In this document: piece after piece, positions 6,736-57,300 of the stretch
Layout of the letters: each line of letters begins with the position of its first letter
How positions within the stretch are numbered: position 1 is the first letter of the stretch
NCBI GenBank assembly: GCA_054600435.1
Contig: BAAIJX010000008.1
Coordinates: 434,001-498,000, forward strand
Source: Neophaeotheca triangularis
Lineage: Eukaryota
DNA length: 64,000 nt
Direction of reading: 5' to 3'
Position numbers and translations under genes: made by a program
The notes under the pieces: model-generated
Seen by the model: the letters and a program-made list of their open reading frames with translations, nothing else
Told to the model about the DNA's origin: nothing
The model's database searches: none

Positions 6736-7728
6736 CTATAGCTTCGAAGACGGTGGTGCCACCCGCGAAACCCCTTGCGGCGCTTCTCGCCGTTCAAAAG
6801 CCTCAATAGCCTTCTTCGCAACCTCTTCACCCCACTCTTGCACAAAATGCCCACCCTCAGCAACCTCGAACCAAAAACACCCATTCCCCCAAACCTGCGC
6901 CAACTTCCTCATAACCGGCGGTCCCAACACGGGATCCTTCATCCCACACGCGACAAAAACATCATCCTTTCCAAACACCTCCCCATTCCCATACATCTCC
7001 CTACTCCGCTTGGAAACCTCCACGCCCTCCATACCCGCATCCGTCATCACCAAGTTCGGAAACCGCCGCACGCCGCCTTTATACTCCACACTCGGGAAGG
7101 GGGCATTGTACGCCTCCGTCTCGGCAGGCGCGAGATGCTTCGTGCCCCTCCCGATCAGCGCGCCGACGTCCATGTCCGGCGACCGGTTGTTGTAAGCGCG
7201 CCAGTCGTCGAAGCCCTTGGTCGAGGGCTGGCCCGTGGCGATGGAAGTGTTCATGACCAGCAAGCGCTTGAAACGCGTGGGTTCCGCGAGCGGCAGGGTG
7301 AGGCCTAGCAGGCCGCCCCAGTCTTGGACTACTAGGGTTATGTTTTGGAGGTCGAGGGTGCGGAGGAGGTGGAGCAGCGAGTCGCGGTGGAAGTTGTAGG
7401 TGTAGGTTGCGTCGAGGGTGGGCTTGTCGCTGCGGCCGAAGCCTAGGAGGTCTGGGGCGATTACGCGGCGGGGAGGGGGGGTGTTGTGGGTGGTGTGGGT
7501 GAGGAAGTGGGGGATCATGCGGCGGTAGAGGAAGGACCAGGTTGGTTGGCCGTGGAGGCAGAGGAAGGTCTCGGGCTGTTGGTTTGGGGATGGTGTGTCG
7601 TTGCGTTCGTCGATGTAGGCCATTCGGAGGTTGCCATGGTTGAGGTATTTAGGGGTATAGGGGAAGTCTGGGATATTTTTAAATCGGTAGTCAGGCGTTC
7701 GTAACGCTTCTACGTTTGATGGTGCCAT
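6736..7728 (-). CDS. Haloalkane dehalogenase-like alpha/beta hydrolase (DhlA/HLD-I type)
   Basis: ATG at 7728 (MAPSNVEALRTPDYRF). Motifs LCLHGQPTWSFLYR, APDLLGFGRSDKP, nucleophile elbow VVQDWGG, acid KDPVLG and catalytic His GGHFVQE. No intron needed. Confidence 0.88.
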   Translation of the reverse strand: MAPSNVEALRTPDYRFKNIPDFPYTPKYLNHGNLRMAYIDERNDTPSPNQQPETFLCLHGQPTWSFLYRRMIPHFLTHTTHNTPPPRRVIAPDLLGFGRSDKPTLDATYTYNFHRDSLLHLLRTLDLQNITLVVQDWGGLLGLTLPLAEPTRFKRLLVMNTSIATGQPSTKGFDDWRAYNNRSPDMDVGALIGRGTKHLAPAETEAYNAPFPSVEYKGGVRRFPNLVMTDAGMEGVEVSKRSREMYGNGEVFGKDDVFVACGMKDPVLGPPVMRKLAQVWGNGCFWFEVAEGGHFVQEWGEEVAKKAIEAFERREAPQGVSRVAPPSSKL

Positions 7729-8135
7729 TTTGTAAGACTGTTGAATCTGTGTAGAGTTACTTGGGTAGGTAGGTAGATAGATAAATACATATAGCTCTCT
7801 CAACTTCACCTCGGCTGGGAACTCCGCGCTAGAGAGAAAAGAGTTAGCTCCAAGCTTTAAAACCGAGGCTTAAAACCGAACATGTAAATCATGCTAGGAG
7901 TGTAGTTATAAGTTAAATTGATTTTATGGTTCGTGTTCCTGATTAATAAGTAGGATGAAGAGTGCGCGGTGTAGCAGACGACACGTAGGGAGGATGCCTC
8001 GAGCAAGAGTTGCGCTAAGCTGCGACAAGATGCTGTTCACTTGTCTGAATGAGTGACCCATCATGCAAACTTCAGTCGAACGCAGTTTCAAGATATAAAC
8101 AACTTCTACAAATCAGTCCTTCGGTAATCGTCTCA

Positions 8136-9119
8136 TCACCTAGCATTCTCGCTGTTAACCCAGGCTTGACAACGTCTCAAAGCACCATCACACCACTCAA
8201 AATACGGCGCCAGATTGCCACCGCCAGATTGATGATGCAAAGCGTGCTTCTTCGCTCCACCACCCCATCCCTCAGGTAAAATCTTATCATACCCCCAAGG
8301 CAAGTCCAATCCCGAATGAATCTCGACCAACAACCACACAAACAACGGCACGAACAACGTCCGTGTCAGCACATGGCTGCCGATGATATTCAGACTGAAA
8401 TTGGCCAGAAGGACTAGCCCCAACCGCTCAAAGACGTGCAGTTGGTTGGTGATTTGCGGGTGCATTTCCGCGTGCGTATGGTGCGGTGCGTGCCAGCTGC
8501 GGAGAACGGGGAGGTGGTGCATGCTCAGGTGGAAGAGGAAGAAGAGGGCATCGTAAAGGACAATGCTGGTCACGAGCTCGAGGGCTAGGCGACGGCTAGT
8601 GGGTGCCACTGTGGGAAGCGCTCGCTCAGTCTGGAGAGGCGATGAGGGCGTGAAATTGTGAAGGCTTGGGACTAGGAAGGTTGACTGATGCGAGCGATTC
8701 AAGTCCTCGAGGTCGTAGTTGCCGGACCGTAGCATGTCTTCCAGCGGTACGTTGGCGAATTTCTTGATCATGAGAAGATCGAGGGCGAGGAGAGGTGCAA
8801 TGTAGGTCAAGCCTTCTACAAGACGTCTGCTGGGTCGCCTCATGCCTTTAGGTTTCTTGGGTGGTTCATCGTGGCCGTTCTTTCGATGCGCAAGTCTCCA
8901 GGAGGGGTTGTTGATAAACGCCACCGTTACTGGCACCTCGATTGCAGCGTAGCAGAAGACTGTCCAGAACGTTTCGAATGTCGATGCACGGTAGATGGTC
9001 GAATGTCTCAGGAAAGTCCATAGTGGCGTCAGTAGGGGTTGGTAGATTGATGGGAAGACGACGGCAGTGGTGAATAGCGTTGCGAAAGCAATACGAGCCT
9101 GCTGGACGGAAAAGGACAT
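8136..9119 (-). CDS. Fatty-acid hydroxylase/sterol desaturase superfamily membrane di-iron enzyme (cholesterol 25-hydroxylase-like)
   Basis: His boxes HLSMHH, HAPHH, EIHSG and HALHH, several TM segments, terminal NLAPYF-x2-D. Single exon. Confidence 0.85.
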   Translation of the reverse strand: MSFSVQQARIAFATLFTTAVVFPSIYQPLLTPLWTFLRHSTIYRASTFETFWTVFCYAAIEVPVTVAFINNPSWRLAHRKNGHDEPPKKPKGMRRPSRRLVEGLTYIAPLLALDLLMIKKFANVPLEDMLRSGNYDLEDLNRSHQSTFLVPSLHNFTPSSPLQTERALPTVAPTSRRLALELVTSIVLYDALFFLFHLSMHHLPVLRSWHAPHHTHAEMHPQITNQLHVFERLGLVLLANFSLNIIGSHVLTRTLFVPLFVWLLVEIHSGLDLPWGYDKILPEGWGGGAKKHALHHQSGGGNLAPYFEWCDGALRRCQAWVNSENAR

Positions 9120-9299
9120 GGTCGTTGAGCTGTTGAAGCAGTGAAGCTCTGGAGCAGCGTGTTATCGTTCGACCAATGTCAGAGCCATAGATATTACAAA
9201 GGTGTAACTGTTGGTATTACTTATCATTGCAAACATGTTGCATGATATAGTACCTACCTTTCTATCCCGAGGCCCAGCCCTGCCAGAGCAACTTTTGGT

Positions 9300-9307
9300 T
9301 GACGTCA
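9300..9307. promoter_or_regulatory. Perfect TGACGTCA (ATF/CRE-type bZIP) palindrome in divergent promoter
   Basis: TGACGTCAC lies between the divergent ATGs at 9119 (-) and 9432 (+). Confidence 0.4.
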
Positions 9308-9431
9308 CGGATTGTAAAGGCAAGGCACCTCGTACTCGAATGATTGACAACCTGACGATACGTTCTCTTTATGTGACCTCTTACCAAACTTCCTTCCACT
9401 ATAGTCAAAGTCTTTACAGTACCTGCTTAAC

Positions 9432-9863
9432 ATGGCGGTCACAAGAGGCGACCTAATAATCATCTACAACGCAGACTCCAGCCTCCGTGGCAAGCTCAAC
9501 TACGCTTACCGCAAGCTCTCATCCTCGACACCCGAAGACCCAGCCTGCGCCGCCTGCGACATAACTCACGGCGGCCTATCATTAAAAGAAGTCCCCAACT
9601 GGTCTAAAACGAAAAGCAGCATAGAAACGCAGGGCTGGAATGTGCTGCAGTGGCATCGAGACGAGGTCGAACCCCATGTCAAAAGCTGGATCCAAGAGCA
9701 GGGCCTGAGGTATCCGACCGTGGTGGCTAGGAGGGAGGATGCTACTCTCGAGCAGGTGGCGGATACTGCTGAGCTGGCAGATTGCGCGGGTGATGCTTCG
9801 AAATTGACCGGGATATTGAGTAAGAAGGGATTAATTCGCGGCACGGAGCAAGCGTCGATGTGA
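9432..9863 (+). CDS. Small conserved hypothetical protein with CxxC (CAACDITHG), possibly a thioredoxin-like fold
   Basis: 143-aa ORF with IIIYNADS...CAACDITHG...YPTV (candidate cis-Pro loop). Good start context. The fold is inferred. Confidence 0.7.
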   Translation: MAVTRGDLIIIYNADSSLRGKLNYAYRKLSSSTPEDPACAACDITHGGLSLKEVPNWSKTKSSIETQGWNVLQWHRDEVEPHVKSWIQEQGLRYPTVVARREDATLEQVADTAELADCAGDASKLTGILSKKGLIRGTEQASM

Positions 9864-9907
9864 TGGGATAAAGTATTAACGATTACGACCGTCGCATGTA
9901 TATATGA

Positions 9908-10579
9908 TCAGAGTGCCCGTGTTACCCAAAAGACTCGCTGCACTATTCCAATGACGACTCCGATTATCAAGACCCAACACAACGACTCCGTCCAACGAGG
10001 CGCAGCGAGCATAACGGTGAAAATCGCACCACTCTCAGCCCCCTCGACAAGCGCAGGCCTCATAGAAACACTGGTCAACTCCCTAACAGCGTCTTCGACC
10101 ACACGCTTCCCGCTCTCTTTGGCGTCGGCAGCAACAGCCTTCCGCTTCTCAACCACGGCTCCGACGAAAAACAAAACGAAATTATTAATATGAAAGCTCA
10201 ACTCGGCCAGAGCAACGGAAAACCATAGCCTCCGAACCTCTTCCGTAGAACCAGCTCCACCGCTTTCCAGACCCCAGGCGCAGCAAATGGGTATGGCAGA
10301 GTAGTAGACGAAATCCGACAGCAAGTCGAGGAAGCCGCCCAAATCGCTCGCCAGGCCTCTCTGGCGTGCGACCGCGCCGTCGAGGCAGTCTAGGATGCGG
10401 TTGAGAAGCCAGAAGGAGAGGGCGTAGCTCGGTTGCTTGCTCGCGGCGGCTATGGAGGATATGAGACCGGCGACTGCTGCTAGGCCTGTGATTTGGAGCG
10501 GGGTGATGCTTTTGGGTATCGTTTTGCAGACGGGGTCGAAGAGGGAGTCTTTGAGTGGTCTGAGGGTGATGTCAAACAT
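9908..10579 (-). CDS. CDP-alcohol phosphatidyltransferase family protein (YnjF-like)
   Basis: Signature D-x2-DG-x2-AR...G-x3-D-x3-D is present as DCLDGAVARQRGLASDLGGFLDLLSD. Also TPLQIT helix, LVEGAE motif and multiple TMs. Confidence 0.9.
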   Translation of the reverse strand: MFDITLRPLKDSLFDPVCKTIPKSITPLQITGLAAVAGLISSIAAASKQPSYALSFWLLNRILDCLDGAVARQRGLASDLGGFLDLLSDFVYYSAIPICCAWGLESGGAGSTEEVRRLWFSVALAELSFHINNFVLFFVGAVVEKRKAVAADAKESGKRVVEDAVRELTSVSMRPALVEGAESGAIFTVMLAAPRWTESLCWVLIIGVVIGIVQRVFWVTRAL

Positions 10580-10883
10580 GGTTTGACAAACGCTCTCGAA
10601 AGGGGGGAGGTTTTTATTTTATTCTATAGTTGCCTTTGTGACTGTAGAGATTTGCGAGTGTTCCAAGGTAAAAGCTGGTTTTCTTTCGACGTATCGATAC
10701 CGTCGTTCACGTTGCAGTGTCCTTGCTCAACCCTTTGTTCGCAAGTATGGTTATGATTTCGGTCTTTCAAGGTCGCGCGCCATGGGTTTGCTGCACATGT
10801 TCTAATGCTCGGGATGTCAGACGGCCTTCGAGGTACCTGAGGTAAGGTATTATCAGCAACGGATGCTTACATATTGGTAGTCC

Positions 10884-10891
10884 TGACGTCA
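10884..10891. promoter_or_regulatory. Second perfect TGACGTCA palindrome in divergent promoter
   Basis: TGACGTCAC lies between the divergent ATGs at 10579 (-) and 11243 (+). Confidence 0.4.
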
Positions 10892-11242
10892 CCCCTGCAG
10901 CTGTATTCATATTGAAATCCTCCGTGTTGTGCTATGAACTCAATCGCATGTGTATATATTAAGAGGATCGTTGATAGGTTGTCCTTCCACAATTGCGTTG
11001 AACTTGGTGTCATCGCAGCAGGAACCCAGCAGGAACCCGATCATCTGTGACTAGGTACTAGCAACTGTCAAGGGTGTGGTCCTCTTCATTCAGAACTACG
11101 CAATCCATACTAGTGTCCAGTTGCCATCGACTCCCGCATCAGGCATAAACACACACATCAACTCGAACCAGCCCCATATTCTCCACGAATCGACCATCTC
11201 CACCAACAAGACTAACTTCAACCCGGGACACCACTCCCGACC

Positions 11243-12694
11243 ATGGCAGCCAACAAACCACCACCGCAGCTGCCCCCGGGAACCTCAAGCATGCTAGCAG
11301 GCATGTCCGAGAACCTCTCCTTCCACGCCTCACCCGAAACCTTCATCGCAAACCGCGCTCTCCAGTACCAACAGCAAAACCCCGAAGCCGTCGACAAGCG
11401 GACAACGATCCGCGCCAAAATCCTCAACCGCAACGTCGCAATCGTATCGTCCTACTCACAAGTGCAGCAGGTTTTGGATGCGCCTGACAACTGCGCAGCA
11501 AACGAAAGGGACCAGAAGAAGGAAGACCCTTTCGTAGCGACGGCTCCTTACCGACGCTTGATGGTCGATTTCTTCCCGCCTCCGAACCTGCTATTGAACG
11601 ATGGCTGTCCGCATCGTTCCTCGAAACGGCGGTGGAAAGAGGCGTCGGCGCCGCTCAGTTCAGCATCAGTGAGCCAGCGCATCACCGCGCGAGCAGGGCA
11701 GTTGTTTCAAGAGTTACTGCAGGCTTCGACCGAGGCGCGGGTCGATTTGTACAGTTTTCTCAAAGACATGGCGTGGGAGATCCACCTCGATGCTTTCCTC
11801 GACATGCAGCCGGACGATCCCGAGTACAGCGATTTCGTGCGTTTGCAGGAGGATTTGCTGCGCGGTCAGTTCTCGTTGTTTCCCGTCACTGTCAATACGG
11901 GGTTTTGGCATTCACCGCGGAAGGTTGGGATTGATGCTCGGAAGAAGCTGCAGGGTATTATTGCTAAAAGGCTTGAGAAGGGGTTTCCTGCTTGGCTGAA
12001 GGAGGCGGGATTGCAGGATTGTCGAGAGGAGACTGTGAATCATTTGCTCATGTCGACGAGTAGTCTCGCGGTGAAGGGGTTTGCTTCGCTGATGACTGCT
12101 TTTCTGTTGAACGTTTTTGTGTATAGATCGGAGTCGATAAGCAGTGATGTTTCGTTGTCAGTATTGCTTGATGGAGAGGAGAATGAGGATGCCAGAGGCA
12201 TGAAACTTCGATCGATATATCAAGAGACTTTACGCCTCAGTCCGCCTATAGTCGGCGTAATGAGGCGTAGTGCTCAAGACCGAACGCTGACGGTGGCTGA
12301 CAAGATCGAGCCGGACATCAAGCTACCCAGTGGATGGGATACATGGACGTATTTCCCAGGTGCTAATAGAGACAAGCATGCCTTTGGGGAGACGGCTGAC
12401 TTGTTCGATCCGTGGCGGTACATGCCTGGCAGTGAACAGCCGCCTCCTCCGATCGCGTTTGGTCTTGGGCCGAAACAATGCCTCGGGGTTGACTTCGTCG
12501 AGACAGCATGCTTAGCTGTACTTTCCGCTTGTCGGCAGGCAAAACTGTCAGTTGACGGAGTGATTGAATCGGCCGGGGTGAAAGGGTTCTTAGGTTGGGA
12601 AGTCGTCAATGGGCAAGCCTGGGCAAGAGACATGAAGCAGCTCCCAACCCAGCATCCAACCTCACCAATCTGGGTGATGCTTAGAAAACATTAG
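11243..12694 (+). CDS. Cytochrome P450 (atypical: no N-terminal TM anchor, no AGxDT threonine)
   Basis: ExxR (QETLRLSPP), meander FDPWRY and heme motif FGLGPKQCLG. Single exon, 483 aa. Confidence 0.9.
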   Translation: MAANKPPPQLPPGTSSMLAGMSENLSFHASPETFIANRALQYQQQNPEAVDKRTTIRAKILNRNVAIVSSYSQVQQVLDAPDNCAANERDQKKEDPFVATAPYRRLMVDFFPPPNLLLNDGCPHRSSKRRWKEASAPLSSASVSQRITARAGQLFQELLQASTEARVDLYSFLKDMAWEIHLDAFLDMQPDDPEYSDFVRLQEDLLRGQFSLFPVTVNTGFWHSPRKVGIDARKKLQGIIAKRLEKGFPAWLKEAGLQDCREETVNHLLMSTSSLAVKGFASLMTAFLLNVFVYRSESISSDVSLSVLLDGEENEDARGMKLRSIYQETLRLSPPIVGVMRRSAQDRTLTVADKIEPDIKLPSGWDTWTYFPGANRDKHAFGETADLFDPWRYMPGSEQPPPPIAFGLGPKQCLGVDFVETACLAVLSACRQAKLSVDGVIESAGVKGFLGWEVVNGQAWARDMKQLPTQHPTSPIWVMLRKH

Positions 12695-12723
12695 TAATCT
12701 TCACCAAACACCAACATTACATC

Positions 12724-13545
12724 TCACTCCCTCTTCACCGCTCTCTTCCCCTGCTTCAGAACCATACTCCGAACAAGCCCCAACCACCACAACCCATTCA
12801 ACCCCACCAACGCTCCAGTCCCCATCTGACAAACCCACCTCTGCATCCTCATCGCTCTCCACGCCCCTAGCCCATGAAACTCTCCATACCGCCGCAAAAC
12901 CCACACGACACTCCCAAACCGCGCCAAAGCAAACGTAAAAGCAAGCAAAGCATCCCACTGCCACTCAGCCCTCCCTGTACGCTTCCTCCGCCACCACCGC
13001 AAGTGCAGAAACGGCGTACTGGCATTCATCAAAATGAACGCGTCGATGATCCAGACCCCACGTTCGCGGCCCTGCGCGATGTAGGTTTGCAGATACCCCA
13101 GCGCGGCTACGAGAGCGGCGTGGTGGCCCAGTAGCACGGTGTCGGAGGCTTCGGCTTTGCGCGTGGTGTTGGTGTGATTGCGTCCCGGTTGGCGGAGAGG
13201 TCGGGACACGCCGCTTAAGGCCAGGATGGCGACGGTGTCGAAGATGAGGTATCCCGTTTCCCAGGCCGTGAGGGCGTTGCCGAAGGCCGAGCGCCCAGTG
13301 ATTAGAGGGTTGTGCGTGTCGTCTAGGCCTTGGGGGCCGATGCGGAAGGGTAGGTTTTCGAGAGTGCCGCTGCTCCAGGGTTGCGAGAGGATGTAGATGG
13401 TTGCTGCGCTGGAGACGAGGGAGTGGGCGCCGGAGATGAGTTTAGTGATCGTTGATGGGTCTGATGAGGTTGTGGTTTTGGTCACGGCATAGGAGGCGAA
13501 GTAGGTCAGGGCTGAGAGGCCTACTACGGCGTATGGGTGAGGCAT
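12724..13545 (-). CDS. TLC (TRAM/LAG1/CLN8) domain membrane protein
   Basis: Motifs ISGAHS, GYLIFD, LGHH, MNASTPFLHLRW, FALARF and LNGLWW; 5-6 TM segments. Single exon. Confidence 0.82.
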   Translation of the reverse strand: MPHPYAVVGLSALTYFASYAVTKTTTSSDPSTITKLISGAHSLVSSAATIYILSQPWSSGTLENLPFRIGPQGLDDTHNPLITGRSAFGNALTAWETGYLIFDTVAILALSGVSRPLRQPGRNHTNTTRKAEASDTVLLGHHAALVAALGYLQTYIAQGRERGVWIIDAFILMNASTPFLHLRWWRRKRTGRAEWQWDALLAFTFALARFGSVVWVLRRYGEFHGLGAWRAMRMQRWVCQMGTGALVGLNGLWWLGLVRSMVLKQGKRAVKRE

Positions 13546-30843: not shown

Positions 30844-32852
30844 ATGGCTGCCCCCGCGCCGCCGCCACGCGAAAGTCCCGAGGACAAAGCGACAAACTCC
30901 ACGCTACTCTCGCTTTTATCGCCTGAGCAGCACGCCGTCGTTTGCAAGCTGCGCGCCGGAGACCTTCTCATCGTCCAACCCACGTACACGCCCCCTACCC
31001 TCGAGCCCGCTACCGGTGGCCTAGAGGAATGGGACAACGTTGACCAGTTGATGGACGAAAGCGCGGATATCCATGGTAACACGGACGCCTCCGCTGAAGG
31101 TGGTGAAGCTGTTGCCGAGGGAGAAGAGGCCGTCGTTGAGGGGCTTTACCAGGAGGATATTGAAGCTGGAGATGAGGACGACGAGGCGGCTCAGGCCGGA
31201 ATGACAGCGACCGTCGCCGACGAGACGCAGGCTGGACACGATATCCCAAGCGTTCGCGACAACCAGGAAGGCAGCGATCCAATTGATACGGACAACCGAA
31301 CCTCGATCGACGGCGGAAACGAGACCGCCACCGCGGGGAACCCAAATTTCCAAATTCCAAGCGTCGAGTCTGCGAGGCGCAGTGATAATCAAGGCGATAT
31401 GCCCAACGACGGCGTGGCTGCCAGCGCTGTCCGGACTGACACAGACGGCTTGGTGGTTGAGGTTGGTGTGGCTGTCCAGCACGGAGATGAGGGTGGGTCT
31501 GGAGAGGAGGAGAAGCACGAAGGTGGTGGGCAGTACGAGGACGAAGACCAGTACGAGGATGAAGAACAGTATGGAGAGGAAGAGCAGTACAATTACGAGG
31601 AGCAGTACGATTATGAGGAGTTGCCTCAAGCCTCGGTCTACATCGTCACCGCCGTCTACGAGGATATGCAGGGCAAGGCTGAGAACATCAAGCTCATGCC
31701 TCTGGAATACCGCAGCGAGCCTATGGAACCCACGCCTTCGTACCAACTGTACGGGGAACTCGTCTCTTTCGACCACTGTCACCTCACTGCTGATGAAGAC
31801 CGAGTTGCGATCTTCACCAACGTGTTGCCTTTCGCCATCGAGTCATCGGACGTCTCGCTCGGCGAAATCGTCGAAAACTGCATTCTCCACCTCGAGCCGG
31901 CGGCTAGCACCATCCGCAACCTCTTGCACAACGGCTTTTGTCCCGCCGAGTGCAGGGCAGGTCGCCTCTACAACACCACGACACTGAAGCAAATGGTCTC
32001 TTCCTACGAGTCTCCCGCCGTGTTGGAGCACGAACCTGTTTGCCCCTGCTGCATGGGTCTCGACTTGATGAAAGAAGAAGAGAACCTACGCGCGCGTGCC
32101 GCAAACTCCACCGTCACAATCGAAGAAGTCGTTGACTTTATGGGTCGCTTCAACATCGTCGCGCAGCAACACGGATATTACACCACGGAGCGTTTGGACG
32201 AGAGGGAGTGGGGTTTCGATTTCGGGGACGAGAACGACGGCGGCCAAGGGGGGGAGCAAGGTCACGGCGATGGGGAATGGGAGGACTGGCCAGAGGCGTT
32301 GGATATGCCTGGTATGAAGCTTGATCCTACTCCAAATCACGTCATTGAGGCGCTGGAGAAGGTCATCTATGGCCCGGCCATGGATGAGGAGACGTGCTTG
32401 ATCTGTTGTTGCGAATTCGGGAAGGGCAGGTGCTTGTGAAGCTGGGCTGTGGGCACCAGTTCTGCGAGGAGTGCACCTCGACTTGGCTGCAGAGCCAGAA
32501 GACCTGTCCCACTTGTAGGTGCAAGGTCTGTGAGGATGGAGAGGCTGAGGAAGATGGTTTGCAGCAGGGTGAGGCGCTAGCAGGAGACGCGGTGGTAGGC
32601 AGTGCGGGTCATGGTGATGCAGAGGATGGGGATGGGGAGGAGGGTGGTGCGGTCGAAGGCAGCGAGGATGAGCCGCTCGTGGAGAATCTCGGCGTGGAGG
32701 ACATCGGCCATGATGGGGTGACGGTGCAAGTGGTGATGGGCTGGGGTGACGATGGAATGGAGAATGAGGAGGAGCGCGAGCTGTTCCGCCTTCCGGAGTG
32801 GGATCTAGGTCGTATCGAGCCGGTCTGGGAGTTGCAGCCCGGTCGCTGGTGA
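30844..32852 (+). pseudogene. RING-finger paralogue 1 (Cys-rich domain plus RING), frameshifted inside the RING
   Basis: ORF 30844-32439 ends CLICCCEFG. The remainder EGQVLVKLGCGHQFCEEC...CPTC lies in the 32394 frame. One extra G in the GGG at 32419-32421 restores it. Confidence 0.7.
31531..31620 (+). repeat. 18-bp coding minisatellite x5 (QYxxEE/D)
   Basis: Units such as CAGTACGAGGACGAAGAC encode QYEDED QYEDEE QYGEEE QYNYEE QYDYEE. Confidence 0.85.
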
Positions 32853-34848
32853 GCGCTACCCGCTTCTTCGGATGGGAGGGCTCTGTTGCGCAGATTGAGA
32901 TGACGTGGAGGCTAAGGCTTCCTTTCTTCCCGTGCAGGCAAGAGCGTGATCTTTAACAACCCATCTGGCGACAGCCCTTAGATACGGTGCAAGGGGCATA
33001 CGGCGTCACACATGATGGCATGGTAGCAGGGGCACAAACCTCTTTCTTTATCAGCTGTCCGTAGTAATACCTTTAAACCCACTTGTTCCCCAAAGTCTCA
33101 ATCAACATGACGACATAAAGGGTCAATTTTGCAGTTGATTCAAGTGGAGATATACCTTGGAGAAAAGGCAAAAGGGCCCATCACGAAGATCGTCGGTAGG
33201 GCCCCTATCACCGACACCTACTGTCTCCAAGCCAAGCATCGAGATTTCGACCATCAGCACCTCTACGCCGTCCGACACGACTTATTTACTAGCCACTACA
33301 CCGGCTACGCGATGGTCAATAGTCGTAACGCCCAACCTAAGTGCAGGGCGACAGGCGCTTATAAAATACGACGAGTTAGAGCAAAACCGCGTCCCCGGTG
33401 AGAGGCGTGGGTGAGTCGAGTATTTCCAGCAGGCGGAGCCGCGTTTTTGTTAGACCGCTCTCACAAAGGGCACAAAAAGCATTACTACGCTTCCATGATG
33501 GGAATGGTAGAAAGGCGAATGGCTTTGTGCTCTTTTCTCTTCGGATCGCTAGCAGCGAGGTGGGCCTGCTTTGTTGACGGTAAGGCGTACAACCTTTGGT
33601 CTGGAGCAAAATAAGAAATGTGATTTGGTCCGTTTCATCGTAAGCTGTTCATAGTGCAGTTTTCTTGACAGTGATACCTCATTCCTTTCCTCCTTTGTTG
33701 TCACGCTTTAGAACTATACACCCGGACCAATTCATGATATAAGGTAGCGAACACACCACCTCTTTCTCAAGCAGCACCAGAGGGGTCTCCGAGGATGCCT
33801 TTGAGCATTGACCCCTGAAAAACTATTCATCCACTACGACCTAGCATCTCTATCTAGCATTCCTAGATTAGGGCCCCGGAGACGGGGCTTCTCTGGCTAC
33901 ATAGCTACCGTAGGCTTGTAAACTCATCTGACCCGCCCTTGGCAACCTGATCATTCCCAGAGTCTCGACTCCAGGAGATGCGCAGACACGAAATCAGGCT
34001 TGAGCGTTCCGACCACCTCATCGAACGTCGTGCACGTCAACCCGGGGTCGGCCGCCGACTCGATTGATCCACTTCGAAACGTCAACTACACACAGGTCTT
34101 GAAAAAAGGATGGACTCGGTGAATGTCTTATATTCGTGTCTGTAGTGTGCTTGACGGCCCATAATCCTGATTGAAAAAGCCGTTCTCATTGGCTTTCTGT
34201 AATGTTCTCTAAATCTTTATCCCTTAGATCACGATCCACACCCGCGAGCGTTCCTTCTTCGGCTTTGCACCCATGTAGCGGACGGAAGACGCTGTTTTCA
34301 AAGGCTGTAGCAAGCAAACTGGGGTATATGTATCCATACCTCTCTCTGTTCCTCCCCTGCCTCCATGACTCTGTCTAACCTCTCTATATCACTGTTTAAT
34401 CATGGTCAAAAGTATAATGCTCTAGCTCGCTGCTGCACCTGTTAAGAGAAATCGCAAGTTTTCTTGTCCATATGCTCTTTTGTTTTGAAACAGTGTGCTA
34501 TTGATCGGCATAGATACCCCAGACGAGCGCCTGTACGGCGACTTGAGACCTCGGGGGGGCTGACGATGGTCGAGGCGCAACGCCCCAAAACTACCGGGGC
34601 CGTTGCCTGAATGATGCCAGTAGACCGAGTCAATCGACCAAACGAATGCTGGCTTCGTGGTAGCTCGTGAAAGCGGAGGCAGCGAGGCAAACGAACATTC
34701 ACTTCGAAAATATTTGCTCGGCCCGAGCCGGGTGCTGCGCCAGGACCATGCCAAAACCTACGCGACCAAGCCTAGCTCTTCTTCGACTTCTCACCTCACT
34801 CCAAACCTTTTCTTGTTGCCCGTCAAGTGCAATGAAAAGTCCAACATC

Positions 34849-36191
34849 ATGATTGACCTCGCCGCCGCCCTTGAGGACAAGCGCACGCCATATGTGTTGC
34901 TTGTCCAACGCCAATCGAACAGCAACAGTCGTCCGTCCAGCCTGCTGGAATATGGTCTAGCTCAAGACGAAGTTGTTAACTACCTAGATGACAACCTCCA
35001 CGGATCAGACCTGGAAAGAAAAATCCACCGTACAAATACGACTGCCTTCGCAAAGGATATCTTCACCAACAGCAACCGTTTCAGAACAACTGATGGTACG
35101 TTCTTCCACGCTTTCGCACCACTCTGGAGCTCTCGACATCCAACGTGGCCGGTGATAGCCGAAATCAATCTGATCAAGCCAAAGGCACCGCCGGGAGTAC
35201 CAACAACTCTCGGCCTGTCTCTACCATCGGCCAAGGCACCGCGCCTTGCGCGGAGCTATATCTCGTGCTCAAGCATTACACAGACAGCAACGACCGCCTG
35301 GATTACCGCCCACACGTCCATTCCGTCAGCGCTCGGAGCGCCCCGTCGTACACAGTCCTGGGCGATCTGATAGTTCCTAGCCACACCACTCGCGCTCGGG
35401 TCCGCAAGCTATTGAAGACTCCGGGAATCCAGTCAACGCTACTCACCGAGGTGCTGAAGGATGATGACATCGTTCACCTGGACCCGGATGGCGATCTCGT
35501 GCGCAAACTCAACAACAACGGCGGCTGTTTGATGGGTTGTGTCAACGGCTGGTTGCCCAACCTAGCGAAGCTCAATTGCGCGATCCCCAACTACACAAGC
35601 CCGGTTTCGCTGGATCACGCCACGATCTGCCCTGGTTGCATCAAACCGAGAGTGAGCAAGGCTCACGAGACCTTGTTGGCCCGGGCCGAGTACGAAGACT
35701 TGCATGTGGACGTTTACCAACAAACGGTCGAACTTTCACGCCTCATGACCGAATTTGAGACCATCCGCAGCGCCAAGGGGTACGCCGGGCATTACTGGAA
35801 CCTTCACGACTATAACTTGCCAAGAGATGCACTCACAGCCTCGAATCCTGCGACAGGGGTCTACTCGGAGGAGAGAGTGTGGGAAGAGTTCTCCGAAGCG
35901 TACGAGCCATCTCCCATCATAACAAGGCATCCAGCAACACAAGAGACGATCAAAAACCTACCACTGGTCAGCTTCTCGCCGTACGCGGAAGCGAAGAGCG
36001 ACAGTTGCCTCATCTGTCTTGTACAGTTCGAGGGCCAGCAAGAGCTTGCGAGGTTGCCGTGTGGGCATCTCTATTGCGCTGATGGGTGCATTCAGAATTG
36101 GCTCGGCGAGCAAAACACTTGTCCAGGATGTCGCGCCAAGGTTGGGCCAGAGGCAGAGGTTGATCGGGTCAAGCAGGGGCTGAGTGACTGA
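34849..36191 (+). CDS. RING-finger paralogue 2 (splice acceptor uncertain; possibly a pseudogene)
   Basis: Exon 1 MIDLAAALEDKRTPYVLLVQ.. with a phase-1 donor GTACGT at 35096. Downstream frame has ELYLVL...CLMGCVNGW...ICPGC... and RING CLIC..CGHLYCADGC..W..CPGC. Confidence 0.65.
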
Positions 36192-37329
36192 ACGGGAGTT
36201 GGAGGCGTTCAAGGCTGGCTATTGGCGAGGAGTTTGGGTTGCTGCGTCAGGGTGCTGTATAGCCATGATACCCCTTTCCGATTCGGTACATATTCTTCAA
36301 TTGCAATGCTTCACTTTTCTTACCGTGTAGCTCGCTCGCCTTCCAACCTAAGATATCATTGACCATCCCCGCTGTACATATTGCTTAGGCTCCCACGAGT
36401 CTTCTACAGCTGCCGCTGCGGCGAGTGGTAGCAGCGCATCTTAGATAGCATGCCCCTGAGCTCGTCGCATGTCGTGGACCAACGGGGCGGAGACTTGAAC
36501 TGTCGTCCCCCGCTTCTCGATATGTTCATGTCCGGAACCTGCTTGGTTGAAAACTAATGCCGGGTTAAAGCCCGAACAAGGCCCTGTTGACATCGTTTCG
36601 ATTAGGTCTTGCGCATTGTCTTCCTTCTGCGTGGCCGACGGAGCATGCCCGAGCGAGCAACTCGTCGCTGCCACAACAATGGATCGCTCTTGTCCTGAAT
36701 AAAGGCGTTCTGGAGTCCTGGCTGCCTGGAAATCTGTTTTCCCTTGTCCGTCTAGACATTGATCTTTGCTTTGCAGGCGTTGTCGATCATTCCGCCGCTC
36801 CGACTTTTAAGGGGGGTCGCTAGTGGTACTTATATCTGTGCCGTACATTCAGAGGTTTCTACGCTCCTTACATCGGTCGACCTATCTTTCAATATTACCG
36901 TTACAGCTTGAATGCAAATATAAAACGTTGGCCTGCTTGATTGTAATGCAGCGCTCACCTACCCTTCGCACACTGCAACCCCTCTTTCCTCTCTTCCTGT
37001 CGTGCTACAGTATGAAGAGCTGCCTCGGATCCATGTCTGCAGAGCAGCATGTCATCTGGAGACCATAGCTGACAATGACAGCACGGAACACCCCGAAGAT
37101 GGCCCTAGCGTGCCCGCATACTACCGGGAGATTAAAGTGAATGTCAGTTCTGCAGCTCTTGGCAGTCCGTGGCTGCTTGTGAGGTCATCCAAAGGATCAT
37201 TCACTTCGGAAATTTCTTCGGCCCGAGCCCGGTGTTACGCCAGGACCGTGAAACACATGTGACCAAGTCCGGCTCTTTTGGCTTCTCCTGGTCCTTTCCT
37301 CGAGTCCTATCGTTGCCAACGTCAGCAGC

Positions 37330-38706
37330 ATGGAGTCCACCGACGACATGGAGCATCTTCTGTCAAGCCTTAACGCTATGGAGGAGTTAGACACGCCTTT
37401 CGTCGTGTTCATTCAACACCCTGCTGCGGACAACGACCACGAGGACTTATCAGAACCCTCAGAGATCGATCGAGCGCCAGATGGTCTCATTGATCGCGCA
37501 GCACAAGATTCTCTCGAGCACAACCTCCAACACGAAGGCGACCAAGCTATCAGCAACATCGTGGCCGCCGCACAAGACCTTTCTCTCGCTACCGACGTTG
37601 CGAGAAACACAATTCACGGTTCGCGCTCTTCCGCCCGCCTGAGCTCGCCCCCTGCCGCTTTAACCGCTGAGCTTACCGCTGCTTGATAACAGCAATCTAA
37701 TTGTGTTTCAGAGAACGCCGGAGACTCCAGCCAGCCCCTAGCTGCCGCCGAAGGAGAGCAGATTGCGACGTTTGTGGGGGAGCTATACCTCGTCCTCAAG
37801 AAGCATAGAAAGGAGCGCTTGATCGACCTGGAGATGGTTCAGCTCCAGTACGAACCTCAGCCGAACTCCGCCGCCGCCCAGGGGCGAATATCGTACTCCA
37901 TCATCGACAGGGCCGTTGTAATTTCCAATCGCCAAGGCGCGGCACAGCAGTTGGAGGACGGGATGGTCGCTACTTGCACGCTTTCTGAGATCCTTGGCCC
38001 TGACGATCTTCTGGACGTCAACCCAACCGCGGAAGTTGTCTGCCACTGCACCTCATGCAACCAATGCCCCCTCGGCTGCGTTGACGGCTGGTTGCCCGAT
38101 CTCGCCACCCTGAACGGCGCCATCCCTCAATACACAAGCCCGGCCATCATCGACCACCCCACCATCTGCCCAACATGCGTAGATATCAAGCTCACGAAGC
38201 AACACGAAGTCATGATGGCTAGGGTCGAGCAGCAGGGAGGTTATATGAGCCGCGACTGGCAGCCCGTCCAACTCGGCAACCTCGTTCATCTGATTCTCGA
38301 TTTCGAAGCGGCCCGCTCGGCCAACGGATACGCCACCACGTCCTGGTGCTGTTTGGATTACGGGCTGCCCTTGGATGCAATGGACCGCGAAATGGCCAGG
38401 ATGGACACGGACGCAACGACCAACGACCAAGAGCACTTTTGGGCTGCGGCACTCGACACGACCGCGCGCGAGCCTCGTAGCAACCCAGCTAGCGAGAAGG
38501 CTATCACCGACCTCAAGCAGGTATCTCGGCAAGGCAGCATGGAGGAACAAGAGGTGTGCTTGGTTTGCAGGAACGAGTTTGAAGCGGGCCAGATTGTGAC
38601 AGAGCTGGGCTGCGGCCATATTTTCTGTGCAGCTGCGGAGGAATGCATCCAGACGTGGCTCCGAAGCCAGAAGACCTGCCCGGCTTGTCGCAAGGCGGTC
38701 GAATAG
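37330..38706 (+). CDS. RING-finger paralogue 3
   Basis: Exon 1 37330-37618 and intron 37619-37711 (GTTCGC..CTAAT..CAG) give an in-frame join. Then ELYLVL, CPLGCVDGW, ICPTC and RING CLVC..CGHIFCAAAEEC..W..CPAC. Confidence 0.8.
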
Positions 38707-39752
38707 CGGCACTTGCCGACTTCAGACTTCAGAGATTCGAGACGGCCCCGGGAGTATAACATATGAAGCAAGCGTTAAATTGGAGTGCCAGGAAAAATAG
38801 TCTGCACGCAAAAGGCAAAGAATTGGTATTTCAGGATCAAGGCTCATGGTAGAAGGCGAAGGAATGGGGATTGGTAGGCGTGACGGCGTTTTATGCTTAC
38901 CTGGAATACCCTACGCTGCTACTTTGCAATTAATAGTCTTGTACTTTACGATCGAGGTGCAACTGCCATGCTCTGGCCTCGCAGGCTGTGAAGATCTTCG
39001 AGGAGCTCTCCAGCCCCCTCTCTTTGCCCTCTCTTGCTTCCCCTCGATTCCCACTCACTTTCGCTTGGTCATGCCAACAGGAGATTCAGCGCCCTGGCAG
39101 CTCGCAGAGATAATTCCGTTGGCTCCACGGTCGCTTCCGCCCAGCTAGACGGTTCCGTTCAAGATATGCAACAGAACTCGCCCGCCACTCATCGCAGGAC
39201 TTAGAGCTCTTTGGGAGCCGGCCGATGTAGTAAGATTGTTTTCAACTTTCTAGTAGGTGGTAGAAAGTCATAGGTGATCTTGGACCCAGGACTAGATTCG
39301 AGCTGCTCCCAGCGAAAGTTTGGCCCGAGATCCGCAGTCGCTGTGCAAGTTGTTTCGTTAATCAGGAGGACACTAGAGCATGAGTAGCCAACCCATTCGC
39401 TAGTCAGGAGCCTGGTTTTGTCGTATGTATCCAATGCACCCCTCCCGAAAGTGTTAACCTGCAACGCAGGCTCCTGAATATTGCCGAACAGGCGATGAGC
39501 TACTAGCAGAATGTGAGCACTCCAGAATATGCCGGCCGGCGAGGTGAGGTTGGAAAGTTCGTGGAAGCCTGCCATTGAGCACCTGCACGAAGGCTCCAGG
39601 CCGAACCTCACCTCTACCTAAAAACCTCACCTTCCCCAACACCTTCAACAACAGTGACGACAGCCCGCACCTCCACAACCTTCAGCTCCTGTCAACCGTT
39701 GCTCAATCATCTTCGCCACAAACAACAGTCCCTGAACATCTTCTCCAAAATC

Positions 39753-40881
39753 ATGTCATCCACCCTCACCATTCCACAGGGTCTCGCCCTCTCGAGTGCA
39801 GGATTGCAGCCGTTCGTCATTCTCGCGGATCAAGACAATCATGCCGCAGAAGACCACGAGACCATACCAAGCGGTAAGAATCAATCATTATCCTCCATCC
39901 CCCGTGCAACGCTAACAGCAAGCAGCAGTCTACCTCGTGCTCGATCTTCTCCACCTCCGCGGCTCATGCTACAACGCACGTGTCCTCGAGCTCCCCTTTT
40001 GCGCCCATCCAGGTCACCAAGCCAGCCGCGGCACGTTCTCTTACACGCTCGTTGACGGCGACGTGAAGAGCAACGTGTTCGCTCCCGGGAACATGGCACG
40101 TGCAAGTGCAGCTGTACACGATCCTCAAACCCCACTGCTCAGCAACCTCGTCGGATGGCAGTGCCGCATCGTCCCGAACCCGAGCGCCGAGGAGGTCCTC
40201 CAGTCTGTCCATGGGGGGCGATGTCCGGTACCATGTGTCGCCGGCTGGGTGCAGGGTTCGCAGGTGGAGACTATGCTGCCCGACTACATACGCCCGGCGC
40301 CCCCGCTCTACCATGTCATGCAGAGAGTCCGCGCAGTTTGTCCCGTTTGTATGGGTCCATCCTTGACCAGAGAGCATCAAAGTCTCCGAGCTGACGCTGA
40401 AGAAGACAACTGGACCGACGCAGAAATGGGCAGGGCGTTCGCACAGTTCCGCATCAACTTCAATCAGATGGCCTCCGTGCGAGGTTATCCTCATTCTCAG
40501 AGAGCCGAGAACGAGTGGATCGACGTTCAAGACGACGTGGACAGCGACGAGGACGAGGACGAGGACGAGAACGAGAACGAGGACGAGGACGATGACGATG
40601 ACGACACCGAGGTCACGGAGATGGTGGATGCCGCAGGCAATCTCACAATCTTGCCAGCTTTGGACGACACAATCGCCGGTGTTGCAGAAGCGCGCTACGC
40701 AGAAGATTCCGATCCTGGTACGGCCTGCCCCATATGCCAGGAGGAAATCAATCGCGGTGACAGAGTCTTTACGCTTGGGTGCAGTCACATTTTCTGCGGC
40801 GGCGATTGCATCCAGAGGTGGCTTGCACAGAAGGCGACGTGCCCCGTATGCCGCAGAGCACTGTGCAAACCAATTCCCTGA
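39753..40881 (+). CDS. RING-finger paralogue 4
   Basis: Exon 1 39753-39873, intron 39874-~39925 (GTAAGA..GCTAAC..CAG) in frame. Then VYLVL, CPVPCVAGW, VCPVC, an acidic run and RING CPIC..CSHIFCGGDC..W..CPVC. Confidence 0.82.
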
Positions 40882-42304: not shown

Positions 42305-42676
42305 TTTGTCTCCCTTCTCATCTGCAGAGTAGTGTCCAGGAGGTGAGGTTGGGTGGCATCACTCTCCCACCGCTGATCGACTTTCACCCTCCCTTCCATC
42401 GGGCCGGAGATTTGCCGCGCTCTCGCGTTCCGTTTTTGGAGTCTAGACTGTTGCCCGTACTTACCTTGGGTCATTTTCAATGATTTTTAAAACTCGAATT
42501 CTTGAAACTCGGATTCCTGAATTTATGTTTTGTAGTTAGAATAATAACGCATCTTACTATAACCTAGGCTTCCTTCTAGATAATATACCTAGGTAGGTAT
42601 AACGGTCGTATACACCTATAAGACTCGGATTCCTATCCTATAGCCCTACTTTAACTTCTATTCTTTCCTTACGATA

Positions 42677-43042
42677 ACCCTCTCGAAACCTCTCGGTATA
42701 ACTATAACCTCTTAAAACGCGATAACGGCCTCTCGAGATGCAGCGACGGCCTCTCGAAATGCGACGACAGCCTCTCGAAATGTAGTAACAGCCTCTTAAA
42801 ATACGACGATGTCTTAAAATGTAATGACGGCCTCTCGAAATGTAGCGACGGCCTCTCGAAATGCGACGACGGCCTCTCGAAAAAGCAGCGACGGCCTCTT
42901 AAATGCGACGATGTCTCGAAATACGACGACGGCCTCTCGAAATGTAGCGACGGCCTCTCGAAATACGACGACGGCCTCTTAAAATGTAGCGACGGCCTCT
43001 TAAAATGTAGCGACAGCCTCTTAAAATGCGACGACGGCCTTA
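42677..43042. repeat. ~21-bp minisatellite (GCGACGGCCTCTCGAAATGTA-like), about 17 degenerate copies
   Basis: Repeated gacggcctctcgaaat[g/a] with variants such as ctcttaaa. Confidence 0.9.
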
Positions 43043-43206
43043 TTACGGTAAGAGGCCTCTCCTCCTCTTTCCTAGCTAAGGAGGGCCTAGCTAGTAGGAG
43101 AGGGCCTACCTAGTAGGTACTACCTCCTTACTTATTTACTACTTATACCCTATAGCGTAGATAGATTAGCTAGACCACTTTACTTCTATTACATATTCTA
43201 ACTAAT

Positions 43207-54318: not shown

Positions 54319-57300
54319 GACCTATCGCTAAGAGCGAGCGTTAGGAACTGAACAACACAAATGCTCAACACGAAATAGCATCAGGAACGGTCTTCCGAAC
54401 AACATGTACTGTCGACAGATACGAAACCTTTACTATGATAGATTCCGGAGCTAGCGGAAACTTTATCTCGGAAACATTCGTACGTCAGCATAGGCTAGCT
54501 ACCTAGAAGAAAACAGATAGCAGGTACGAACTGATAGCCGTAGATAGCTTATCACTACCCGACGTGGATAGCGAAACAGTACCGCTACCACTTGTCTTCT
54601 AAGAGCATCATGAGCGAATTGTCCTGGACGTTATACCTATAGCTAGACATGACGTCGTTCTAGGCACTCCTTGGTTAGAACGACACAATCCTATAGTAGA
54701 TTGGAGAAAACGAGTACTCACATTCGACAGGTGTAGTTACGTCACTACAACCTACCCTGCGCGCCGGCAGCGATCGACGGCAGATGAGAGAAGGCAGATC
54801 AATGAAACATATCGCCAATCGACCACGATACCAATACGAATTGGATCGGACTCCACAGATACCGAACTAGCCTAAACGGACTAACAAGTAAGAGTTGAGG
54901 AAGGAAGTCACGCACCTTCGGATATCCCTAGAGAATTCAGGAAATAGAAGCGCCTTTTCTAGGAAGAGGAAGGAGCAGCCGCTCTGCCTAGACATCAACT
55001 ATAGGACCACCGAATCGACATTTAGCCCGGTGCGAAAATACCATGGGGGCCACTTTATGCGCTATCCGAAAAAGAGCTCGAAGAGTAACGACAATGGCTA
55101 GATGAAAAAATGAAGAAAGGATAGATTCGACCCTCCACTTCATCAGCCGCTTCACTACCGTTTTTCGTTCCGAAGAAAGGAGGAAAACTACGAATGGTTA
55201 TCGATTTCAGACGACTTAATGCGATCACCACAAAAAACCGTTATCCACTGCCTAACATCGACGAGATAAGAGATCGACTCACCGGTTCACACTAGTTCAC
55301 CAAAATCGATCTCCGAGATGCATTCTATTCAGTCAGAATAGCAAGGGGGGAAGAGTGGAAAACAGCTTTTCGAACGCGCTACGGACTTTACGAATTCCAA
55401 GTCATGCCTATAGGACTTATGAACGCCCTAGCAACCTGTCAACAACTCGTCAACGACATCCTGCGAGACCTACTCGATATTACTGTCATCGCTTACATCG
55501 ACGACATATTAGTCTTCACGAAAGGATCACGAGAACAACATACTAAAGACGTACACGCCGTGTTCGAACGACTCGATAAGGTAGACTTCAGGACAGCACT
55601 AGAGAAGTGCGAGTTCTACAAAAAGGAAGTCGACTTTCTAGGCTTTATGATTAGCACTACCGGGATCTGAATAGACCCGAAGAAAACTCAATCGATCGAG
55701 GAATGGCCGACACCTAAGTCAGTTAAGGACATTCAAGCATTCCTTAGACTAGCTAACTACAATTAGAAATTCGTGCAGGATTATTCAAGGCTCGCTATGC
55801 CTCTAACTAATCTCACGAAGAAAGACACACCATTCGTATAGGGAAAGATTTAACAACAATCCTTCGATAAGCTTAAGGAGTCATACACGACTACCCCTAC
55901 GCTTAGGATGTTTGACCCTAAGAGACCTATCCAAATCGAAACCGATGCCTCCGACAGAGCAATAAGAGCTTACCTCACGTAGGAGGTTGAAAGCAAACGA
56001 CACCCTATCGCCTACTTCTCAAGGAAGATGTCACTAGCGGAACAGAATTACGAGATCTACGACAAAGAACTGCTCGCAATTATTACAGCATTGCGATACT
56101 AGAGAGTGTACTATGAAGGAGCAACCGGACTAACTATTTACTCGGATCATAAGAACCTACAATACTTCATAACTACTAAGGAACTGTTATGCCGACAATG
56201 CAGATAGTTAGAGCTACTCGGACAATATAAGTTCGACATAGTCTACACTCCTGGAAAAGACAATAGGCGCGCTGACGCGTTAAGCAGAAGAAGCGACTAC
56301 ATGGAAGGGCACCTTCTATAGCAACACCGCATACTAAAGGTTAATAAGGACGGAAGCCTAAGCGCTAACCCTTAGGAATTTAACTCAGTACTACGAGTAC
56401 TTAGGGATGATACCGAAGAATTCCCTATCGAGTATAGGAAGTTCAGGGTTCTAAACGAAAAGGAACGCCAGTACATCTAGGACTACCATGATGGACCCAC
56501 TAACGGACATCCAGGAATCGCTAGAACAGTAGAACACATCAGACGCAACTTCGTGTTTCCCGGAATGAGACAGAAGGTCTCAGAGTACATCAAGAAGTGT
56601 ACGAGCTACTAACAAAACAAAGCTTCAAGACACGCTAAATATGGAAACCTACAATTCTAGGAGCTACTAGATCTACTATAGAACGAGGTCACAATAGATT
56701 TTATCGTCAAGTTACCAAGATCTAAGGACCCGTCAACAAGTAAGGACTACGATTCAATTCTAGTCATAGTCGATAGACTCACGAAGTATTCACATTTCGT
56801 TCCCTATAACGAGACAATCACTATAGAGGAACTCGGATACCTCGTTCTCGACAGATTAGTACGATACCACGGCATTCTAACGGTTCTAATTACGGACAGA
56901 GATAAGCTCTTCACATCCAACTACTAGAAGACCTTAATATCAGCGATAGGAGTGAAACACAAGCTCTCTACAGCATTTCACCCCAAAACCGATAGACAGA
57001 CAGAGCGCTCAAACTAATCCCTCGAAACGTATTTACGACATTATGTCAACTACGCTTAGGACAATTGGGTAGCGCTCTTACCTATAGCACAGCTCGCACT
57101 TAACAACAATGCCTTAGAGACAACAGGAATAACTCCGTTCTACGCAAACTTCGGAAAAGATCTAAACATGTTCATAGAACTAAAGCCAGGACCACTCGCG
57201 GAAAGAGCCCTATAAACGTCTTCGTAGCTGTAGGAAGCATACAAACAGGCGAAAGACAAAATCACACAGTCGTAACGGCGACTCGAGTCATAGAGATATA

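Follow-up and report, generated by a model that had tools for sequence, protein, structure and literature searches.

The window analysed here, a 64,000-nucleotide stretch of the 25.4 Mb genome of the fungus Neophaeotheca triangularis (C8:434001-498000), carries five neighbouring genes of a dedicated, ancient ascomycete cluster of up to seven genes. The five that are still together encode a membrane di-iron hydroxylase, a non-canonical cytochrome P450, a TLC-domain protein, a cytidine diphosphate (CDP)-alcohol phosphotransferase and a small CxxC protein with a putative thioredoxin fold (Table 1), while a transporter of the major facilitator superfamily (MFS) and a flavin-containing monooxygenase (FMO) join them in other fungi. 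Clustering of the five genes exceeds chance by far, and the genes almost certainly serve one common pathway. What that pathway makes is less clear-cut: quite possibly, if somewhat short of probably, a sterol or similar lipid is oxidised, then acylated and/or phospho-conjugated, and transported, with no scaffold-forming core enzyme involved. The initial annotation of this DNA had proposed a six-gene cluster that also took in an adjacent dehalogenase; five of these genes are indeed linked in distant ascomycetes, but the dehalogenase is not conserved with them.

Linkage of the cluster across ascomycete classes

We aligned 34 of the P450 matches and took 68 metagenome loci, many of them short, around relatives; the P450 served as the anchor of this sample, and locus content was scored by tblastn. 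The hydroxylase and the TLC protein were each found in 50 of the 68 loci, the CxxC protein in 37 and the phosphotransferase in 34. Four flanking genes of the window, used as controls, were found in 0/68, and a fifth control, a reductase, matched only a distant P450 locus (L070). A search for recurrent open reading frames (ORFs) in 27 loci yielded the two extra members, the MFS transporter (18 loci) and the FMO (10 loci). Grouping at 90% P450 identity gave 32 groups, 16 of which extend 8 kb or more to each side; with the best-stocked locus of each group counted, which leans the numbers upward, the hydroxylase is present in 15 of the 16, the phosphotransferase, CxxC protein and MFS transporter in 14 each, the TLC protein in 13 and the FMO, the least constant member, in 9. 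At 70% identity the corresponding counts among 12 groups are 11 for each of the first four, 10 for the TLC protein and 8 for the FMO.

Member order and orientation are reshuffled between lineages, and the members keep within ~10 kb of each other while the flanks change completely. Genes of Dothideomycete genomes stay on the same chromosome while their order is shuffled, and the set is split in some genomes, as would be expected of a chance neighbourhood kept by such mesosynteny, its genes having separate jobs. The tight spacing amid changing flanks, the four controls and linkage over at least three classes make this explanation highly improbable.

Adjacent locus tags occur in Salinomyces (B0A50_00922/00925/00926) and Exophiala (LTR70_010204/010199), proteins of loci L008 and L024 share 90% clusters with proteins of Exophiala xenobiotica and Cadophora malorum, and 24 contigs, several of them named Pleosporales, are apparently common to the P450 and hydroxylase match lists, a few small ones perhaps by coincidence. 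Linkage spans Dothideomycetes, Eurotiomycetes and Leotiomycetes, these being the classes to which we take the linked genomes to belong, and it probably extends to Lecanoromycetes, since the hydroxylase of locus L019 groups with Lecanora. Unlinked orthologues in other fungi had been named at the outset as the observation that would speak against a cluster; by synteny, the five genes stay linked in many orders.

Loci L025 and L028 and the L050 group have the hydroxylase, P450 and TLC genes, with no phosphotransferase, CxxC or MFS gene in the DNA examined; L028, whose flank is short, additionally has the FMO. Because these loci show only the first set, the members look like two modules, a minimal one of hydroxylase, P450 and TLC protein and a second one of phosphotransferase, CxxC protein and Spinster-type transporter. 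Within the genome the P450 is single-copy, and the hydroxylase, TLC protein and phosphotransferase are extra copies beside five, three and four other members of their respective families.

Table 1. Genes of the block and promoter elements, in window positions.
Position	Strand	Feature	Length (amino acids)	Standing
6736..7728	-	Haloalkane dehalogenase, DhlA/DppA type	330	Adjacent non-member
8136..9119	-	Membrane di-iron hydroxylase, CH25H/ERG25 branch of the fatty acid hydroxylase superfamily	327	Core member
9300..9307		CRE-like palindrome, hydroxylase/CxxC divergent promoter		Weak co-regulation hint
9432..9863	+	Small CxxC protein, putative thioredoxin fold, without Pfam family	143	Member, accompanies phosphotransferase
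9908..10579	-	CDP-alcohol phosphotransferase, bacterial YnjF type	223	Member
10884..10891		CRE-like palindrome, phosphotransferase/P450 divergent promoter		Weak hint
11243..12694	+	Non-canonical cytochrome P450 without anchor, CYP16-like	483	Core member
12724..13545	-	TLC-domain protein, putative acyl-CoA acyltransferase	273	Core member

Gene structure and absence of a scaffold enzyme

Each of the six ORFs of the block runs in one frame from ATG to stop, and the exact proteins are present as NCBI gene calls. The family labels first given to them agree with Pfam and NCBIfam (in table order Abhydrolase_1/NF002043, FA_hydroxylase, none for the CxxC protein, CDP-OH_P_transf, p450 and TLC), and the genes, separated by gaps of 407, 312, 44, 663 and 29 bp, include the two divergent pairs that had been described, hydroxylase/CxxC and phosphotransferase/P450. 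The lack of introns also stands for all six, but it is not diagnostic, since tblastn matches to orthologues elsewhere fall into several pieces; long single-frame genes also border the block. At the closest locus the phosphotransferase (L003:7040-7771, minus strand) contains an 18-residue in-frame insertion resembling an intron, and because of this insertion we regard the missing introns of the window as lineage-specific. A recent bacterial transfer, which missing introns might suggest, is unsupported: orthologues have introns, eukaryotes supply the closest P450 relatives that carry names, the best being from Hortaea and Salinomyces (56-57% identity), and pattern-based scans, which are insensitive to distant relatives, turned up no locus in prokaryotes, plasmids or viruses.

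No scaffold-forming enzyme, whether polyketide synthase (PKS), nonribosomal peptide synthetase (NRPS) or terpene core, lies in the block or its scanned flanks, as had been noted, and none is among the recurrent neighbours in the 27 loci, which are the MFS transporter and the FMO. For want of such a core enzyme, the block does not qualify as a classical PKS, NRPS or terpene cluster.

A CYP16-like P450 with an invariant I-helix lysine

The P450 retains E328 and R331 (ExxR), the heme cysteine C413 and an I-helix lysine, K278, in 119 of 119 homologues, with S282 kept in 118. Across the same homologues, neither Asp nor Glu is among the four commonest residues at positions 270-285, where a catalytic acid was sought, and none passes the hydropathy threshold for an N-terminal membrane anchor. 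In one HMMER register, itself uncertain, Lys278 takes the place of the opening Ala/Gly in the canonical motif, Ala281 that of the acid and Ser282 that of the threonine, for which Ser282 may stand. A canonical microsomal P450 was rejected: the heme cysteine and ExxR are kept, but the enzyme lacks both the I-helix (A/G)Gx(D/E)T acid-alcohol motif and the anchor. The structural model shows a complete P450 fold (predicted local distance difference test score, pLDDT, 88.4), with a Z score of 31 to CYP120A1 that is tied with others. The general premise that P450s oxidise lipids is less safe for such a non-canonical, CYP16-like enzyme than was initially assumed.

A profile search covering 1.84 billion representatives returned non-fungal matches from Clytia and Hondaea, with informative names for 3 of the 10 examined, and the I-helix lysine is kept in 24 of 24 aligned sequences. 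The Clytia P450 matches the fungal profile over its whole length (E 2.9e-32; hhalign 99.8%) at 21% identity, identities to non-fungal relatives being about 21-25%. Placement in a P450 family calls for identity of 40% or more with a named member, and the fungal P450 lies below this for animal CYP16, CYP16D1 itself having been compared by eye. Given identities of just ~21-25% we label the enzyme CYP16-like instead of CYP16, and it may have an existing fungal family number. With Nematostella CYP16D1, of animal clan 16, it has in common the I-helix lysine signature S-x-L-x-x-K-A/G-x-A/S-S and the lack of an N-terminal anchor. In the supplement of PMC8110760, CYP16D1 is printed with the lysine motif and without an anchor, and fungi are given as lacking clan 16; to the CYP16D1 shown there the Clytia match bears a close resemblance by eye, with the same I-helix motif. 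Animal CYP16, whose function in vertebrates is given as unknown in PMC11184212 and which was lost in mammals according to PMC5751882, is associated with no known gene cluster, whereas the fungal P450 sits in one. Five divergent P450s (P0372, P0375, P0378, P0384 and P0385) that keep the lysine motif are intermediate between the family of the ascomycetes and the CYP16-like P450s of animals; their neighbourhoods would bear on the age of the cluster.

Partner enzymes and transporter

The hydroxylase matches PF04116, and its histidines 197, 201, 210, 213, 214, 216, 268, 292, 295 and 296 are invariant in 19 of 19 aligned sequences, so that all His boxes are intact. Scored against the five paralogues in the genome, its profile reaches 43 bits on the ERG25-like protein, 10.5 on the ERG3-like, 3.6 on the SUR2-like and 2.7 on the SCS7-like, the fifth being unmatched; these labels are ones that we presume from motifs. 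Homologues bear the name cholesterol 25-hydroxylase through automatic naming. On sequence grounds, sterol oxidases of the ERG25 type stand closest to the hydroxylase of the cluster.

In the TLC protein (PF03798), D103, H141, H142 and R209 are invariant in 10 of 10 sequences, and D103 and H141-H142 resemble, by motif and not by alignment, the Asp/His site of TLCD1 (D98/H117). Its profile scores at most 11 bits on the three other TLC loci of the genome, and it matched no solved ceramide synthase or any other Protein Data Bank entry. The phosphotransferase (PF01066) has D64, D67, G68, A71, R72, G81, D85 and D89 invariant in 16 of 16 sequences, leaving the DxxDGxxAR...GxxxDxxxD signature intact. 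It aligns over its full length with E. coli YnjF (27% identity, hhalign 99.3%), itself annotated by domain only, and its nearest solved relatives are archaeal and mycobacterial inositol phosphotransferases. The MFS profile has seven solved matches, every one of them SPNS1, SPNS2 or a single bacterial MFS entry (6e8j), which we take to be Spinster-like.

These similarities are what could be expected if no sterol were involved and the product were an unusual glycerophospholipid or sphingolipid, such as one resembling bis(monoacylglycero)phosphate (BMP) or a ceramide-phosphodiester with a hydroxylated chain. Spinster relatives carry lysolipids or sphingosine-1-phosphate, and the nearest solved phosphotransferases make inositol phosphodiesters. 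According to PMC11838012, TLCD1 transfers acyl groups by a ping-pong mechanism via Asp and His and, like CLN8 and yeast YPR114w, is a lysophospholipid acyltransferase, so that TLCD1 and CLN8 act on acceptors of the type this explanation requires. We nevertheless consider it rather unlikely, as the hydroxylase is far closer to the ERG25-like than to the SUR2- or SCS7-like paralogue, and the TLC profile neither scores appreciably on the other TLC loci nor finds a solved ceramide synthase.

The CxxC protein has three cysteines, C39, C42 and C118, that are invariant in 32 of 32 sequences. Its model (pLDDT 80.9), in which the CxxC comes after an inserted helix, has thioredoxin-fold chains as its listed structural matches, the best with Z 7.5 and a root-mean-square deviation of 2.8 over 90 aligned residues; Z scores up to 7.5 are in the range usual for unrelated models, yet the listed rows concur on the thioredoxin fold. 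Look-alike clusters, all unnamed, come from Ascomycota, archaea and Bacteroidota. An orthologue of the FMO is encoded elsewhere in this genome (C3:425127-426800, L071, 48%). Of the solved structures, mammalian-type and trimethylamine FMOs come closest to the cluster FMO, and cyclohexanone monooxygenase ranks last.

The FMO type and the invariant cysteines would also suit a pathway for a heteroatom lipid with a tertiary-amine N-oxide, thioether or organo-arsenic head group, in which the FMO would oxidise the heteroatom, the CxxC protein bind or reduce it and the YnjF-type enzyme fix it on a lipid. ArsD is among the tied fold matches of the CxxC protein (Z 6.4), and the kinship to YnjF fits as well, YnjF-like, small CxxC and desaturase genes being, as we presume, found near bacterial arsenosugar genes. 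Such a pathway is very unlikely: the listed recurrent neighbours include no methyltransferase or radical-SAM gene, the FMO is missing from 7 of the 16 groups, and CDP-alcohol is mentioned in none of 8 arsenosugar papers.

Promoters, expression and evolutionary history

Each divergent promoter holds one copy of the palindrome TGACGTCA, which resembles a cAMP response element (CRE); the 64 kb contain only these two, and 17 of 100 shuffles contain at least two copies. Compared with all flanks, the top 7-mer reached p 3e-17 before lineage thinning and promoter controls. With thinned lineages and promoter controls, the palindrome 8-mer class stood at 6/49 versus 1/30 (p 0.17), ATGACGT at 10/49 versus 1/43 upstream regions (p 0.007, post hoc) and the hexamer at 13/49 versus 10/43; ATGACGT is absent from the window's own promoters. 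Two low-depth metatranscriptome runs, consisting of contigs only, gave 5 pieces each, and an 874-base contig covers the CxxC and phosphotransferase genes, which is not proof of a transcript.

The P450 and hydroxylase trees (29 paired rows) agree on the main groups, with c5640 and L035 as exceptions. Both place Chaetothyriales beside the window's group, and the hydroxylase tree sets Clohesyomyces beside Emericellopsis; the P450 tree mostly follows orders. A single Dothideomycete clade was rejected for the hydroxylase (approximately unbiased test, p-AU 6e-5) and not for the P450 (p-AU 0.08), in quick, unrooted trees and for a group picked after they had been viewed. For horizontal transfer of the cluster the tree topologies give only a hint.

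Detoxification clusters typically vary in membership and have gene trees that disagree with the fungal classes. The same parts could serve the uptake and detoxification or catabolism of an outside lipid, such as a plant or algal sterol, a triterpenoid, an apocarotenoid or a lipid hydroperoxide, which the Spinster protein would import, the oxidases attack and acylation or phospho-conjugation neutralise. The conflict of the hydroxylase tree with the fungal classes and the patchy membership agree with this explanation, and a peroxide-using P450 together with a thioredoxin fold would fit lipid hydroperoxides. Against it, the P450 is single-copy, with a tree mostly by order for which vertical descent is not rejected, and the five genes have been kept here though the transporter was not found; we judge an outside lipid conceivable but unlikely.

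A candidate core-less lipid pathway

In the sterol-type pathway that we favour, a sterol or similar membrane isoprenoid would be drawn from primary metabolism, and because the substrate is inferred to come from there, no scaffold enzyme would be needed. The CH25H/ERG25-type di-iron enzyme would first hydroxylate the sterol-type substrate, and the P450, with its invariant lysine over the active site, would then act on an oxygenated or anionic intermediate. CYP74 and CYP152 likewise lack the acid-alcohol pair and use peroxides, and by analogy the chemistry of this P450 would more probably be peroxide-driven or rearranging than reductase-fed hydroxylation. The FMO may contribute an optional heteroatom oxidation. 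In the third step the TLC protein would esterify the new hydroxyl using acyl-CoA, and in the fourth the YnjF-type enzyme, helped by the CxxC protein, would add a phosphodiester head group. The CDP donor would be a housekeeping one (CDP-diacylglycerol, CDP-choline or CDP-ethanolamine), no cytidylyltransferase recurring in the cluster, and finally the Spinster transporter would move the amphipathic product or a precursor. A more specific outcome, an undescribed fungal membrane or signalling lipid consisting of an oxidised sterol with an acyl chain and a phosphodiester head group, made with a P450 that is lysine-assisted and works without the usual proton relay, is possible but doubtful.

Several observations weigh against the sterol-type pathway. 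Both the sterol substrate and the oxidised, phospho-conjugated product are read from sequence, the likeness to ERG25 is a family-level argument that draws on presumed paralogue labels, and the cholesterol 25-hydroxylase names are automatic. Characterised TLC and Spinster proteins act on glycerophospholipids and sphingolipids, not sterols. The relatives of the FMO oxidise amine or sulfur and rank far above Baeyer-Villiger enzymes, which appears a poor fit to a sterol, and no cluster gene lies in the 20 kb taken around the FMO locus on C3. Two single-protein queries found no Spinster-type MFS gene in this genome, which leaves its absence unproven. Lecanosticta and Vermiconidia carry members on different contigs, and the shared promoter motif is weak.

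Other features of the window

The dehalogenase scores 288.8 bits on NF002043 (cut-off 265), has 2xt0 as its best solved relative (E 1.9e-87) and looks intact, with motif residues D136, W137, W176, D266 and H294 in what we take to be their usual roles. It was rejected as a cluster member: there is no strong match in the 68 loci, and weak partial matches (39% over ~70 amino acids, E 2e-9, short of the E 1e-20 threshold of the group counts) occur in only three of them, which are near-identical. The early doubt over its membership was well placed. In those three loci (L048, L050 and L066, out of 16 near-identical ones), the weak alpha/beta-hydrolase match lies ~4.6 kb from the hydroxylase. The fungal dehalogenase is possibly a bacterial acquisition.

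From ~43000 to 64000 the window is AT-rich and ORF-poor, with a pattern like that of repeat-induced point mutation (TpA/ApT up to 2.14, (CA+TG)/(AC+GT) down to 0.37) and, at 55296-55667, a remnant that resembles reverse transcriptase by eye; this block is a decayed retrotransposon region. A short tandem repeat with a repetitive open frame (42655-43110) marks its edge. On the plus strand, 30844-40881 holds RING-finger genes at 35532, 37834 and 40093 and a similar ORF at 30844 that has no Pfam match; all four have a cysteine-rich middle part in common and form a local paralogue array.

Relation to known systems and significance

The viridin/demethoxyviridin cluster starts from a sterol of primary metabolism and has several clustered oxidases and no PKS or NRPS core. 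Like the pathway proposed here, clusters of that type are sterol-fed and core-less, but they contain several canonical P450s and a Baeyer-Villiger enzyme, unlike this one. We know of no sterol-tailoring cluster with a CDP-alcohol phosphotransferase, a TLC acyltransferase, a Spinster transporter or a CYP16-like P450. Compared with cholesterol 25-hydroxylase and ERG25, the cluster hydroxylase likewise has intact His boxes; it is a separate gene copy, and the likeness is one of sequence. E. coli YnjF, in the ydjXYZ-ynjABCDE neighbourhood, has a small redox-type protein nearby, as in the fungal cluster, whereas its other neighbours (DedA, ferredoxin, ABC transporter and sulfurtransferase) are not among the recurrent fungal ones. 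That a TLC protein is paired with a Spinster-type transporter brings to mind how lysosomes handle lysolipids in the BMP pathway, and the TLC domains of TLCD1, ALE2 and CLN8 as described in PMC11838012 have a conserved Asp and His pair, as here; those are unclustered housekeeping genes, whereas the TLC gene of the cluster is a distinct, diverged copy linked with oxidase genes.

The cluster had been called undescribed, and the open-access literature indeed gave no account of it, though subscription papers and catalogue supplements (e.g. EvolClust) may list it unnamed; the parts consulted of PMC11719821, PMC7010643 and PMC5358931 treat other genes. The cluster is real and conserved, and no cluster that we know of resembles it in the conjugating and transport parts or in the P450.

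Core-based cluster finders miss a scaffold-less cluster of membrane-lipid enzymes such as this one, and its conservation over several ascomycete classes implies a widespread metabolite that has seemingly never been tied to genes. With five intronless genes within 5.4 kb, the pathway is directly testable. It also offers a handle on three orphan families: the CYP16-like P450s, the YnjF-type phosphotransferases and the unclassified CxxC protein with its putative thioredoxin fold. If the proposal is true, the P450 would set a CYP16-like enzyme in a pathway for the first time and would provide a pointer to the role of orphan CYP16 in fish and cnidarians.

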